A stretch of DNA of 18,748 nt from a virus (lineage: Duplodnaviria; Heunggongvirae; Uroviricota; Caudoviricetes). Made by a program: the position numbers. This document shows positions 6,001-12,000 of the stretch, piece after piece (position 1 is the stretch's first letter; each line of letters opens with the position of its first letter). The stretch covers positions 1 through 18,748 of IMG/VR virus record IMGVR_UViG_2703718816_000016. One strand, written 5' to 3'.

Positions 6001-9000
6001 TCGCTTTCTAGAACTACTGCAAAGGCATTGGCAGGGATTTCGCCAGCAATCTGCACACTAGAGGGGGCTAAGGTATTTTTCATATAATCACTCCAGCTTG
6101 CTGCCTGCTGAAGTGATAGTAACGGAACCATTTTTACTGGTGGTAAAGATAGATCACGAGATTCACTTATATTTAACACACCTCCATTTAGGAGCCAATT
6201 TTCACTTACATTCAAGATCTTGGCTAGAGAAGTTATGTAGCGAGATGATGGCGTGCCTCCACCATTTATCCATTGACTGACAGAGCCTTTTGATGCGCCT
6301 GTGGCGCTGACAAGGTCTTTTCCTTTCAGATTTAGCGCGTGCATACGCTGAGTAATGCGTTCAGATATTGTTTGCTTAGTCATGTTTCGATTTTAAAACA
6401 CTAAAGGTTTTGTTTCTTGACTTTCTTTGGTTTTGATTATTAAACTTTGTCCGTTCAGTTTTATGGAGCGAACAATGAAAAAATCAGAAGTTTTAGGATA
6501 TTTTGGCGGTGTTGTTAAAACGGCCTCAGCACTAGGAACGTCAAAAACCACTGTCAGCATGTGGGAAGAGGATGTTCCGTGGAAATGGGCACTGCTCATT
6601 CAGGCTGTCACTGGTGGTGCGCTCAAGTATGAGTTACATGTACCGACGGTTACCATTCCCTCTGATGATTGTAAGTCGATCTCTGTTCAGGGAGATGATT
6701 CATGAAAATCAAGCATGAACACATCCGCATGGCGATGAATGCGTGGGCATATCCTGACGGTGAGAAGGTGCCAGCTGCTGCTATTGCCAGAGCGTATTTT
6801 GAACTGGGGATGACATATCCCGAGTTGCACAACGACGACAGGCACAACGCGCTCTATCTCAACACCCAAAAGATTTTCCGTTGGCTGGATAAAGACACTC
6901 CTGATGCTGTTGAGAAAATTCAGGCATTGTTACCGGCAATCGAAAAGGCAATGCCGCCTCTGCTGGTGGCCCGTATGCGCAGTCACAGTTCTGAGTATTA
7001 CCGGGATATTGTCGAACGGCGGGACAGGCTTGTTAAGGATGTGGATGACTTTGTCGCGGTGGCGATTGCCTGGGGCACCATGACTAACAGTGGTGGTCAG
7101 CCAGGTAATGCTGTTGTGGTGCATTAACTCGAGATCCTGGAGGGTTGCATGAGTAGTAAGCTTCATGGCCTTGTCTGGGAAGGGTGCGCCTTCACGGGCA
7201 TGATCTTATCCCGGGTGGCGGTGATGGCTCGTCTTGCGGATTACAGCAACGATGAGGGTGTGTCATGGCCTGCCATTGAAACTATCCGTCGCCAGATCGG
7301 AGCCAAAAGTGAATCAACCGTGAAATCGGCTATTGCCGAACTGGCAAAAGAGGGCTGGCTGACTAAGGAAGAGCGTAAGGTCGGTGGGCGTAGTGTAAGT
7401 AATATCTATCGGCTTAATGTGGAAAAACTCGAGGCAGCGGCAGCGACTGCGCGTGAGGCATATAAACCGAAAAGAAATATTAGCCCGGCAAAAAATGACC
7501 CGTCAAATATTGACCCCTCAATGGTTGACCCGTCAAATTCTGAGGGGTCAACCATTGATAAAAAACAGCCGATTAGGGGGGCGATGATTGACCCCGATCC
7601 GTCAGTATTAAAACCTGATCCGTCAGATAAAAGATCTTCTTGTCCGGACGTTTCACTTCCGGACGAAAAAAAATCATCTCCGGTTGAACGCTTTCTGGAT
7701 AAACACCCTGATGCGCATACGTGGAATGTGCCGAAGCGACAGTGGGGAACCCGTGATGATATTACCTGTGCGCAGTGGATCTGGGGGCGTGTTGTTGCGC
7801 TGTATGAACATGCAGCCAGTGATGATGGTGAGGTTTCTCGCCCCAGAGAACCAAACTGGACGACCTGGGCTAACGATGTCCGGATGATGCGCATGCTGGA
7901 TGGCCGCAGTCACCGGCAGATTTGTGAAATGTTCAGTCGGGTGCAGCGGGATCCTTTCTGGGTAAAAAATATCATGAGTCCGGCAAAACTGCGCGAAAAA
8001 TGGGATGAACTGGTCATTCGTCTTGGGCGTGGTCCTGCGCAGAGTTGCGTGAATCATATTTCTGAACCGGACACTGAAATTCCACCGGGTTTCAGGGGGT
8101 AACTGACCATGAAAGATATCTCGACAGTTGCAGTTGGTATTCTGGAACGCATCCGCAGACTGGCTCCTGAGCACGTTCCCGTGCCGTACAGTACGACGGA
8201 GGAGTGGCGCGAGTGGCAACTTGCCGAAGGCCGGAAATGCTGCGAGGAGATTAACCGCCGGAATCGTCAGTTGCGGGTGGAAAAAATCCTGAACCGTTCG
8301 GGCATCCAGCCGCTGCACCGCAAATGTTCGTTCGCGAATTACCAGGTGCGGAACGACGGGCAGAAACATGCGCTGAGCCAGGCCAAATCCATCGCTGAGG
8401 AAATGATAACCGGTTATACAAACTTCGTGTTCAGCGGGAATCCGGGAACCGGAAAAAATCATCTGGCGGCGGCTGTGGGTAATCGTCTGCTGAAGGCCGG
8501 TAAATCCGTGATAGTGGTAACCGTGGCGGATGTGATGAGCGCGTTACATGCCAGCTATGACGATGGGCTGTCAGGGGAAAAATTTTTGCGGGAACTGTGT
8601 GAAGTGGACCTCCTGGTTCTTGACGAAATTGGCATTCAGCGCGAGACAAAAAACGAGCAGGTGGTACTGCACCAGATTGTTGACCGCCGGACGGCATCAC
8701 TGCGCAGTGTCGGGATGCTGACAAACCTGAATCATGCCGCAATGAGCACGCTTCTTGGTGAGAGGATTATGGACCGGATGACCATGAACGGTGGTCGCTG
8801 GGTGAGTTTTAACTGGGAAAGCTGGCGTCCCAATGTCAGCCATCTGAGTGTGGCGAAGTAATTTTTATCCGGAGGAAAATTTAATGGAAACCGTTTTTGA
8901 CGCACTGAAAGCACTGAAAAAAGCCTCGTCGCACGAGATTGCAGCCCGTCTTGAAATCAGCCGTGACGATGCTGTTACCGAACTCTGGAAGCTGAAGCGT

Positions 9001-12000
9001 CGTGGTGAGGCTGATAACAAGGGGTCGATGTGGTGGCCGACGAGTGAGGCAAGTGAAGCGGTCCCAAAAACCACAGCAGAGATGCTGATTAACGCGATTG
9101 AACAGCATGGTCCTCAGTCGGCTGACGAACTGGCGTTAATGTTCGGGATTACCTCCCACCGGGCGAATTCATCACTGGCGATGGCAATCAGCAAAGGTCG
9201 TCTGATTCGCGTTAATCAGGACGGTAAATATCGTTACTGCATACCGGGCGATAATTTACCGACAGAGCCGAAAGCTGCATCGGTAACGGAAACCGATGGT
9301 AAAGCCTTTCCTCAGCCAGCAGGTGTTGCGTTACCAGTCCGGGAAGCGGAAACACAGGAAGAAATTAAAACTGAAAGTGTGGCGGTCACAGTGCAGTCAC
9401 GGCCGTCGTTCACCAGAAAGCATCCGGATAGTCTGATTTTACCATCGCTGCATGTGGCTAACCGCGAACTGCGCCGGGCAAAAGGTCAGGTTCAGAAGTG
9501 GGAGCGAGTCTGTGCTGCGCTGCGTGAGCTGAACAAGCACCAGGATATTGTTCGACAGATTACTGATTCATCCTGTTGTGTTGCATCAGAAAAGTGATTG
9601 CAGGGGACGCTGATGGCAAGAGTATTTACACCAGAAGAGCGGGAAAAAATTAAGGGGCAGGTTGTTGAACTCGTACGCCAGAGCGGTCGCGAGACGTTAC
9701 GGCAACTGGAAGCTAAAACAGGTGCAACAAGATATCTGGTGAGCGTTCTCGCCAGAGAGCTGGTTGCCAGTGGTGATGTATACAACTCTGGCTACGGGTT
9801 ATTTCCGTCTGAACAGGCTCGTAAAGACTGGCAAAACGACCGCAAAAAACTTTCAAGGGAAAAGGCGAAGAAACCGGCTGTGGTTGATCCGGACCTTATC
9901 TGGTCATTACCAGACGGAGAAATACGCCGCTACGACAGGCGCCTGAACATAATCTGTCGCGAGTGCCGGAATAGTGAAGTTATGCAGCGAGTGCTGGCGT
10001 TTTATCAGGGGGTGGGGTCAGGAGGTGGTGCTGTGAGTGAAATTAGCTATCAGGCTTCAATTGCCGCTGGCATTCGCATCAAAGGAGAGGAGCATGGAAA
10101 TAAAACCAGAAGATGAGTTAAGTAATATTGTTTTATTTCCGGTAAAAGAGGATGACCCACGTAATCAGGTTAATTTTCTTTATGAGCCATCGGAAAGACC
10201 ATATTGTCATCACGCCTCTGTCCGGGTTGACGAAAAAGAGCGTCAGGTCCGCTGTAAAATCTGCGGTGCAGTTGTGGAGCCATTTGACTGGATGCTCTCT
10301 GTGGCGAAAAGAGAAACCAGACTGGCAGATGATGTAAGGCTCTTGCGCCAGGAGGAACGGGAAAGGCGGAGAAATGTAGAAAAGCTAATTCAGATTGAGC
10401 GTAACGCGAAAGCGCGGATACGCAGGGCGGCAAAATCAAGAACTGAATAATTAAATTTAGCACTGTTAAAAATTTAATCCTTAACCGGAGGGATTTCTGC
10501 ACCCTCAGAACATCAGGAGGCCGTTCGAAATGGCGGTAGTGAAATGCGAAAATTCAAAATAATTATTGAAACGGGAATAGCTGGTGGAGATTTTGAGGAT
10601 GTATTCGAAGTAGATGATGACGCAACACCTGATGAAATTCATGACGAAGCAAAAGAAATTTTCTTTAACTACTGCAATTACTCATACCACGAAATAAAAG
10701 ATGAAGAGGAAGGACAAAATGGCTGATTTTGGTTCAACTAAATATAACGCCAGTTTTGAAGAATGGCATGAACTGTTAATGGATTATGCAGAGTTACGCG
10801 GTGGAAGTGCCGCTGATGCTGAAGCATAGCGTGATGATTATGAAGCAGGGAAAACTCCGGTCGAAGCATATTGTGATGAGTGGGGCGATGAATGAGCGAG
10901 ATTAATTATCAGGAAGGGCATGAAAAGGCAGGGCAGGCAAAACCAGTGGCATGGCGATATCGCTACGTGAAAAAAGGCGTTACAGACTTTCAGGGGAAGC
11001 AGTGGGCTGGTGACTGGAAATATGTCCAGACAAAAGAAGATTGTAACGACAGACCGAACTATGAAATTCAGGCGTTATTCACGGCCCCGCCAGCCCCGGT
11101 GACATCAGAAGGACTAGTTAAAGCCGTGTGCTTTTATGAACAGGTAAAGCGTGAGAATCCACCAGTCGAAACAGGTGCATGGAAAGATGCTGTTGACTGG
11201 GTACTCAAAGAGGCTTGCCAGGCTGTAAGCATTAGCAACAAAGGGGGGTGAGTAATGCGTGTGGCATGTATCAGTTTGTTACCGTACCCGACTCGTTTTT
11301 GGGCTTCTGCGCTAATTGCAAAGCCGCGTGTCCTGATGGATGACAGCATCATCCCGACACCAAAGCGCCGCCATACCGGTATTGCAGCGGCACGACGAGC
11401 AGCAAAGAAACGCAGGAGAGCAAAACGATGAAAAACCGTAAAGCAAAAATTCTGTTAGCTCGCAGAAACGGTGTTGGTGTCTGGCGGTGGGTGAGGATTA
11501 GTAACAGACGGGTGAGGTTGACGGGGTGTTGCGGTGTTATGGGGCACAGTTGTTGCAAAAAGCCCAGCGCGGCGCAAAACCGCTGGAAAAACCACTGTTA
11601 TCTGCGCACTAAAGGAGAGTGAGATGGCGTTAACACACCGCGAACTCTGTCAGATTGCGTACAAGTTCCTTAAGCGCAACGGGTTCAAGGTTTGCTTTCA
11701 TGACCGCTTTATAGCTGTAACCAGTACCGGAGAACAGCCAGATGCTATGGGATTCAGAAATTCAGCATCATGCCTGATAGAGGCGAAGTGTTCTCGTGCT
11801 GACTTGTTGGCAGATAGAAAAAAGCGTTTCCGTAAAAATCCCTCTCTTGGCATGGGCGACTGGAGATTCTTTATTAGTGAGCCGGGAATTATTTCAATTG
11901 AGGATTTACCACCTGGCTGGGGATTACTTCACGTTGTTAACGGAAGAGTACGGAAAGTACATGGGTGGCCCAAGGGTAATTGCTGTTGGGGTAATCCTGA

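Follow-up and report, generated by a model that had tools for sequence, protein, structure and literature searches.

What are the three small genes that lie directly after the helicase-loader gene of a lambdoid prophage, and do they form one dedicated system? The question is raised by a window of 18,748 nucleotides (nt) of E. coli lambdoid (Rac/Qin-like) prophage DNA (IMG/VR record IMGVR_UViG_2703718816_000016; all coordinates are window positions), in which three open reading frames (ORFs), named here ORF1 to ORF3, occupy positions 8884-10450. The initial annotation had described them as a three-gene cassette of unknown function. The best explanation is that the early rightward operon has a variable 'ren slot' at this locus, which is filled with three independently shuffled accessory genes and not with one dedicated system. 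The three genes are:

8884-9597, + strand: ORF1, ATG at 8884, TGA ending at 9597, 237 amino acids (aa)
9613-10116, + strand: ORF2, ATG at 9613, TGA ending at 10116, 167 aa
10094-10450, + strand: ORF3, ATG at 10094, TAA ending at 10450, 118 aa

The lengths of the ORFs, their good ribosome-binding sites and the overlap of 23 nt between ORF2 and ORF3 (10094-10116) had been described before, and all coordinates hold. Each start codon is preceded at a distance of 5-8 nt by a purine-rich Shine-Dalgarno sequence, read from the sequence as GGAGG at 8871-8875 for ORF1, AGGGGA at 9602-9607 for ORF2 and AAGGAGAGGAG at 10082-10092 for ORF3. In E. coli ES5, a prophage with 98% identity carries the same three coding sequences, with equal lengths, in its RefSeq annotation. 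Differences across distinct homologous DNA copies were counted separately for codon positions 1, 2 and 3, which gave 752/774/2100 for ORF1, 473/751/2093 for the core of ORF2 (aa 1-133) and 119/77/370 for ORF3. Due to this excess at the third position, ORF1, the ORF2 core and ORF3 are all seen to evolve as coding sequence. The excess is not seen in the final 34 codons of ORF2 (24/8/20, small numbers).

Families of the three proteins

The following parts of ORF2 and ORF3 are referred to below:

9613-10011, + strand: conserved core of ORF2 (aa 1-133) with an N-terminal winged helix, a linker and the C-terminal helix motif NIICRECRNSEVMQRVLAFY
10012-10116, + strand: tail of ORF2 (aa 134-167), variable and lineage-specific, which crosses the ribosome-binding site of ORF3 and ends 23 nt inside that gene
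10066-10093, + strand: 5' edge of the ORF3 module, including the Shine-Dalgarno sequence AAGGAGAGGAG
10205-10207 (C38), 10211-10213 (H40), 10253-10255 (C54) and 10262-10264 (C57), + strand: putative zinc ligands of ORF3 in the pattern C-x-H...C-x2-C
10280-10444, + strand: basic helix of ORF3 (aa 63-117, 55 residues, predicted local distance difference test (pLDDT) 87-95, isoelectric point (pI) 11.3)

ORF1 and ORF2 had not been recognised in the initial annotation, and both belong to catalogued families. ORF2 is a member of Pfam DUF977 (PF06163; 94.3 bits against a cutoff of 22.1), its aa 1-133 corresponding to model positions 1-131 of 134. Its whole core also matches phrog_142, 'Ren-like exclusion protein' (E-value 1.7e-45, profile positions 1-111 of 116), to which lambda Ren itself is assigned (E-value 1.6e-41, profile positions 11-110). 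A BLASTP comparison of ORF2 with lambda Ren revealed 11 identities in 20 residues of the C-terminal motif; the motif common to the C-termini of both proteins is N-[IL]-[IV]-x-[KR]-E-C-R-x-S-x-x-M-x-R-V-L-A-x-Y. The core has a pI of 9.65 and ends with AFYQG in all ORF2 relatives. Proteins annotated as LygF or DUF977 are 80-98% identical to ORF2, and the corresponding genes are annotated in Rac-type phages in the order ydaV-ydaW-lygF. In lambda the order is P-ren-ninB with ren directly after P, while ORF2 is here the second gene after the loader. Since ORF2 and lambda Ren share PHROG 142 and the C-terminal motif, and since the synteny is like that of P-ren-ninB, ORF2 is, judged by its sequence, a lambda Ren-family gene in the ren position.

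Rex is said to exclude ren mutants of lambda, as Toothman and Herskowitz reportedly found in 1980. The lambda ren gene is non-essential and dispensable for plaque formation. Thomason et al. consider it 'likely involved in DNA replication', and the Rex proteins contact O and Ren in two-hybrid experiments. DUF977 has been recognised as a winged helix fused to Fic domains. Papers on the function of DUF977 or DUF1627, the family of ORF1, did not turn up in a literature search.

ORF1 matches Pfam DUF1627 (PF07789) with 274.1 bits against a cutoff of 28.1, the whole model being spanned by aa 72-226, and is assigned to PHROG 630 (E-value 5e-112). Its identity to the full-length YdaW of phage Rac amounts to 72%, and its aa 1-135 are 55% identical to the truncated YdaW of K-12, an alignment which covers both putative winged helices. 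The protein consists of a probable winged helix at aa 1-53, a second one at aa 62-120, an acidic, probably disordered linker rich in Pro, Glu and Thr at aa 121-184, and C-terminal helices at aa 185-233. The tandem winged helices were already suggested by the initial annotation. They are probable but weakly supported, namely by matches below the curated cutoffs, which converge on aa 2-53 and aa 62-120, and by a low-confidence structural model. The Pfam scores are 19.7 against 27 for MarR_2, 16.6 against 21 for FeoC and 13.6 against 25 for HTH_11; among the PHROGs, phrog_633 matches aa 2-53 (4e-7) and phrog_1687 aa 65-120 (3e-5), and the winged-helix match of the ORF1 profile to PDB entry 2d1h is marginal (E-value 0.017). 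The AlphaFold2 (AF2) model shows the pattern H-H-H, then H-H-H-beta-beta, a long unstructured linker and C-terminal helices, with a low mean pLDDT of 46.7. All relatives available as input were at least 80% identical, and the model was used for its secondary-structure pattern only. In a genome-wide screen the overexpressed ydaW of K-12 blocked RcaT, the toxin of retron-Sen2. YdaW of K-12 is also listed among predicted transcription factors.

ORF3 belongs to PHROG 1621 (E-value 9e-56), a group of uncharacterised phage proteins. The Cys/His zinc-binding motif noticed at the outset is well conserved: C38, H40, C54 and C57 are invariant in 34 of 34 homologues, and in 73 relatives with about 30% identity C38, C54 and C57 are still invariant and H40 is at least 90% conserved. 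The AF2 model (mean pLDDT 77.9) comprises a small two-stranded ribbon (strands 43-46 and 51-54) followed by a long helix, and the highly basic tail, described earlier as coiled-coil-like, corresponds to this single helix of aa 63-117. The N-terminus is acidic, probably disordered, and carries the conserved motif ELSNxVxFP, which together with ERNAKARIR near the end of the helix constitutes the most conserved part of the protein. Within the first 35 residues (10094-10200), F15 and P16 of this N-terminal motif are invariant. Many homologues from outside E. coli end in PLPLWQNE. Both ELSNxVxFP and PLPLWQNE look like docking peptides for a partner.

A profile search for relatives of ORF3 gave 1624 cluster representatives at E≤1e-3 among 1.84 billion; among the matches listed, most are 100-190 aa long. 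All 73 sampled distant relatives match PHROG 1621. A Pfam scan of these 73 proteins revealed no Pfam family and, except for an Ea22 fusion, no informative extra domain. The genome collection, scanned with the closer ORF3 alignment, contributed 12 loci. The TFIIB zinc ribbon (PF08271) scores 21.6 bits with ORF3, which is below the cutoff of 29, with the ligand pattern kept, and the best fold match of the model is likewise TFIIB (1pft, E-value 0.16). Foldseek searches of the ORF3 model against the PDB and viral predicted structures found nothing at E≤0.001 and only generic zinc ribbons. In PDB searches with single sequences and with profiles nothing significant was found, apart from the marginal 2d1h match of ORF1.

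All three are small non-catalytic proteins, in agreement with the first reading, in which no catalytic motif had been recognised. They belong to three families whose small members probably bind nucleic acid or proteins. None of them was found to be homologous to a core replication or nin protein with a housekeeping role, as lambda ren is not essential and the family of ORF3 is without a known role.

Distribution of the genes and the ORF2/ORF3 overlap

Neighbouring genes were mapped in the 80 closest IMG/VR loci of each gene. A relative of ORF1 stands directly after a helicase-loader gene in 77 of the 78 informative loci, and the same adjacency is seen in Rac and phage Rac. The loader in front of it is of a 220-aa type in 53 loci and DnaC-like in 24. 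The 220-aa loader, which is paired with a YdaU-like initiator, is taken by us to be lambda-P-like from our own reading of its sequence against lambda P; a tblastn search with lambda P as query missed it at cutoffs of E≤1e-5 and 40% coverage.

Relatives of ORF2 follow ORF1 in 53 loci and stand directly after an O-like gene in 16. These 16 loci (including L195, L201, L208, L210, L211 and L214) contain neither a loader nor a YdaW-like gene. Either these loci are remnants left by deletions, or their replication modules rely on a host loader.

In the sample anchored on ORF2, only 13 loci show ORF2 followed by ORF3. In the sample anchored on ORF3, the gene in front of ORF3 is ORF2 in 65 of 75 loci. 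Depending on the anchor gene, the complete trio is present in 11 of 64 to 23 of 66 loci. Of 5426 complete E. coli genomes, 806 contain a full-length DNA match to ORF1, 3933 contain one to the ORF2 core and 1679 one to ORF3; only 165 have the whole cassette.

Outside Escherichia, homologues of ORF3 with 47-71% identity are encoded where the nin region ends. RusA, NinG, NinH or DUF968 precedes them in Serratia, Yersinia, Erwinia tracheiphila and Photorhabdus, and in Yersinia, Kluyvera and Pantoea they are located one or two genes upstream of Q (loci among L245-L249, L256 and L260). In Serratia the homologue follows RusA or NinG, and Q was not identified. In none of the loci examined outside Escherichia does a Ren-like or YdaW-like gene adjoin the ORF3 homologue. 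In the Stx phage ArgO145 an ead/Ea22-like gene of the leftward early region is followed by a near-identical ORF3.

The three genes assort independently and the cassette is not a conserved unit, because the trio is a minority arrangement and ORF3 is found elsewhere in other genera and in ArgO145. The unit assumed by the initial annotation has therefore to be given up, as ORF3 can equally lie near Q or next to an Ea22-like gene.

The overlap between ORF2 and ORF3 can be traced to ORF3. Similarity between the window and ArgO145 begins at about 10066, that is 28 nt before the ATG of ORF3, and megablast matches to Stx2a phages begin at about 10065. The shared module edge covers 10066-10116 of the window and 2501-2551 of the ArgO145 locus L250. 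The ead/Ea22-like gene of ArgO145 is unrelated to ORF2 and also ends 23 nt inside the ORF3 homologue, and the final ~50 nt of ORF2 are common to the end of this gene. Because the same overlap occurs there and the similarity starts at about 10066, the overlap is a property of the 5' edge of a mobile ORF3 module, and this TGA ends any gene that enters it in that frame. Recombination at the junction probably produced the 34-residue tail of ORF2 as a by-product; relatives, most of them with 140-143 aa, have differing tails. A translational coupling peculiar to ORF2 and ORF3 was considered as an explanation of the overlap and is rejected because of the equal overlap of the Ea22-like gene in ArgO145.

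Another arrangement that is common keeps ORF2 and ORF3 in one reading frame, interrupted by a single TGA. Four clusters of 278-aa ORF2-ORF3 fusions, which arose via TGA to TGG, were found (P0164, P0176, P0207 and P0213), one of them on four contigs. Read-through of the TGA might yield a low-level ORF2-ORF3 fusion in the common arrangement. As an indication that the two proteins could work as a pair, the fusions are weak.

Prophage setting and transcription

The copy of the prophage in E. coli ES5 is integrated at a site adjoining potC. The left part of the prophage contains the integrase, a large exonuclease, dicB/DicF and ydfA-D, followed by a LexA-like repressor on the minus strand. The rightward genes encode Cro, a YdaT/CII-like protein, the O-like initiator, the DnaC-like loader and ORF1 to ORF3. 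After ORF3 there is a run of small uncharacterised genes, followed by hok/sok, DUF968, RusA, Q, a methyltransferase and tRNAs. The features with coordinates are:

4535-4586, - strand: DicF small RNA (sRNA), Rfam
7149-8102, + strand: O-like initiator, directly before the loader in gene order
8109-8861, + strand: DnaC-type helicase loader (476.9 bits with NCBIfam PRK12377, cutoff 389; Pfam IstB_IS21; PHROG 50 'DnaC-like helicase loader')
10544-10726: DUF7167 / phrog_1997 gene
10892-11251 and 12136-12480: two phrog_660-related ORFs
11534-12139: phrog_9263/631 ORF
12602-12777, + strand: sok antitoxin RNA, Rfam, overlapping the hok/mok ORF at 12715-12927
17142-17388, + strand: three tRNA genes, Rfam
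17496-17693, + strand: sRNA STnc100, Rfam

The gap between the loader and ORF1 is 22 nt. The DUF7167 gene is next after ORF3 in 63 of 80 related IMG/VR loci. An Rfam scan of the whole window revealed no RNA family inside 8884-10450.

Consensus scans indicate a pR-like promoter at 6417 and a first convincing terminator on the + strand at 12996. No sigma-70-like promoter or terminator on the + strand was found in or beside 8884-10450 by these simple scans, which are weak tests. The G+C content of ORF1 and ORF2 is 0.51, the same as that of the replication genes, and the content of ORF3 is about 0.46-0.47; ORF3 and the gene after it are more A+T-rich than ORF1 and ORF2. A search for operator-like sites in the form of repeats or palindromes found none in or next to the cassette, and iterons only in the O-like gene. 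Because promoter and terminator were not found inside, the three genes read as part of the early rightward operon and not as a separate transcription unit. They appear to be co-transcribed with the replication genes after induction or infection.

The initial annotation rightly saw the genes in an accessory position, flanked by the replication genes on one side and by the nin-like region on the other. Morons in the sense of Hendrix are inserted genes with their own promoter and terminator that are expressed from the prophage. In this strict sense the term moron, also used in the initial annotation, is unsupported, as the consensus scans did not find an own promoter or terminator and as ORF1 and ORF2 do not differ from the replication genes in G+C content.

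Two further observations concern the O-like gene. It contains iteron-like repeats at 7475-7600 (TTGACCC[C/G]TC with 15-bp spacing, inverted copies as well), and this cluster, which probably serves as the origin of phage replication, has the same placement as in lambda. The aa 298-317 of its product weakly match the C-terminus of DnaT (NCBIfam PRK02854, E-value 0.02), and the same last 20 residues also weakly match the tails of several PHROG replication proteins. These C-terminal 20 residues may form a shared docking tail.

Possible functions and known systems

The genes are already catalogued (DUF1627, DUF977 and PHROG 1621), and their arrangement is known, ordinary and very common in E. coli. 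We judge all three to be dispensable, because their distribution is patchy and lambda ren is non-essential. The reading we favour is a ren slot with non-essential Ren-type helpers against exclusion or abortive infection, namely ORF2 and probably ORF1, next to which ORF3 stands as a separate element. ORF2, and probably ORF1, would be small winged-helix proteins that are produced alongside the replication proteins and act like lambda Ren. They would bind DNA, the replication nucleoprotein complex or a sensor, and this binding would stop exclusion or abortive-infection systems of the Rex or retron type from sensing the replicating phage or killing the cell. ORF3 would most likely be a separate, small, dimeric, nucleic-acid-binding protein of the nin region. 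Taken as a whole this statement is tentative; we consider it quite possible, without calling it probable.

Several points weigh against it. The resemblance of ORF2 to lambda Ren is weak beyond the C-terminal 20 residues, and a profile-profile comparison, made with shallow profiles (effective number of sequences, Neff, 1.4), gave no signal of paralogy between ORF1 and ORF2. A four-sequence alignment shows a similar layout of winged helix, linker and C-terminal helix in both proteins at 20% identity, which is too low to count as evidence. The ydaW result is a single hit of an overexpression screen and was obtained with a truncated allele. Furthermore, rexAB does not stand beside the repressor gene: left of cI (3954-5745) there are minus-strand ORFs of at most 97 aa, and the ES5 copy is annotated with ydfA-ydfD/dicB in that region. 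As this prophage is without rexAB next to the repressor, any anti-Rex role would be aimed at other prophages or at a foreign target. The neighbour mapping is biased to close relatives, that is E. coli prophages, and the scans for promoters and terminators are simple consensus matches. Finally, the strict linkage of ORF1 to the loader fits a role in replication equally well.

In such a role, the strongest competing explanation, ORF1 and ORF2 would be winged-helix accessories of the replication module that join or tune replication, for instance by stabilising or releasing the complex of initiator, loader and DnaB or by controlling transcription through the origin, and an anti-exclusion effect would be secondary. 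The constant place of ORF1 relatives after either loader type in 77 of 78 loci, that of ORF2 after ORF1 or the initiator gene, the apparent co-transcription of both with the O-like and DnaC-like genes and the iterons at 7475-7600 all fit this idea, as do the opinion of Thomason et al. on ren and the two-hybrid partners Ren and O. However, lambda forms plaques without ren, ORF1 and ORF2 are each missing from many otherwise similar prophages, repeated binding sites were not found in or beside the cassette, and module boundaries, and not function, are often behind a tight order of genes in lambdoid phages, so that we regard a primary replication role as rather unlikely. That ORF1, ORF2 and perhaps ORF3 are plain transcription regulators, which bind phage or host operators during lytic growth, is suggested by the weak matches of MarR, TrmB and FeoC type, by PHROGs annotated as transcriptional regulators, by the listing of K-12 YdaW as a predicted transcription factor, by the DUF977 winged helix fused to Fic domains and by the basic nature of the ORF2 core and the ORF3 helix. 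Every winged-helix match is however below its curated cutoff, winged helices also mediate protein contacts, and candidate operators (repeats, palindromes) were not found near the genes; plain regulators are decidedly unlikely.

A dedicated three-component unit, be it prophage defence, a toxin-antitoxin system or a moron, would be consistent with the tight packing and the overlap of ORF2 and ORF3, with the position of ORF2 immediately before ORF3 in 65 of 75 close loci and with the fusion proteins in four clusters. The overlap belongs, however, to the ORF3 module edge, ORF1 and ORF2 have an unremarkable composition, an own promoter or terminator was not found, and a scan of PADLOC-DB yielded only one marginal match (the winged-helix region of ORF1 to SWIM_XIII, E-value 3.6e-4, 17 bits) and none for ORF2 and ORF3, so that matches to defence systems are not significant. 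With the trio in the minority and ORF3 elsewhere in other genera and in Stx phage ArgO145, such a unit is already largely refuted by the assortment data and is highly improbable. A variant of the favoured reading would place ORF1, ORF2 and possibly ORF3 together in a Ren-type class of counter-defence proteins, with winged helices or a zinc ribbon, that mask the replication complex or directly bind sensors such as RexA or retron components and so stop abortive-infection systems from firing. As read-through fusions exist, ORF2 and ORF3 might in that case act as a pair; we consider this variant unlikely.

In practice, the middle gene can be labelled Ren-family and the cassette as ren slot. YdaW and Ren family members rank among the most common early genes of E. 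coli prophages that are still uncharacterised, and for each family there is one experimental hint against abortive infection, concerning Rex for Ren and retron-Sen2 for YdaW. Both families are therefore cheap and well-defined candidates for anti-defence screens. PHROG 1621 is a large family without a Pfam model, for which a family definition could be added.

Compared with known systems, the locus resembles the morons of lambdoid phages in that small accessory genes with a mosaic distribution are involved and in that the ORF3 module changes its genome position; it differs from them since an own promoter or terminator was not detected here and the orientation, as well as the G+C content of ORF1 and ORF2, fits the operon. 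ORF3 and the 73 relatives of PHROG 1621 have the C-x-H...C-x2-C ligands and the helix motif ERNAKARIR in common, whereas in other genera the gene lies before Q and not after a Ren-like gene. The gene order ydaV (DnaC-like)-ydaW-lygF of the Rac prophage and phage Rac equals that of the locus described here. In contrast to ORF1, YdaW of K-12 is shortened by the Rac deletion and is without the linker and the C-terminal helices. Among LygF/DUF977 proteins, which occur in Rac-type phages and in Salmonella prophage remnants, most have 140-143 aa, and the 167-aa form with the tail of ORF2 is a minority. Lambda Ren has only 96 aa in comparison to the ORF2 core of about 133 aa and does not match Pfam DUF977; in ORF2 an insertion of about 40 aa separates the winged helix from the C-terminal helix, and the 34-aa junction tail is present in addition. 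Both proteins nevertheless match PHROG 142 end to end, share an N-terminal winged helix and the C-terminal motif, and are encoded in the first slot after the replication genes.

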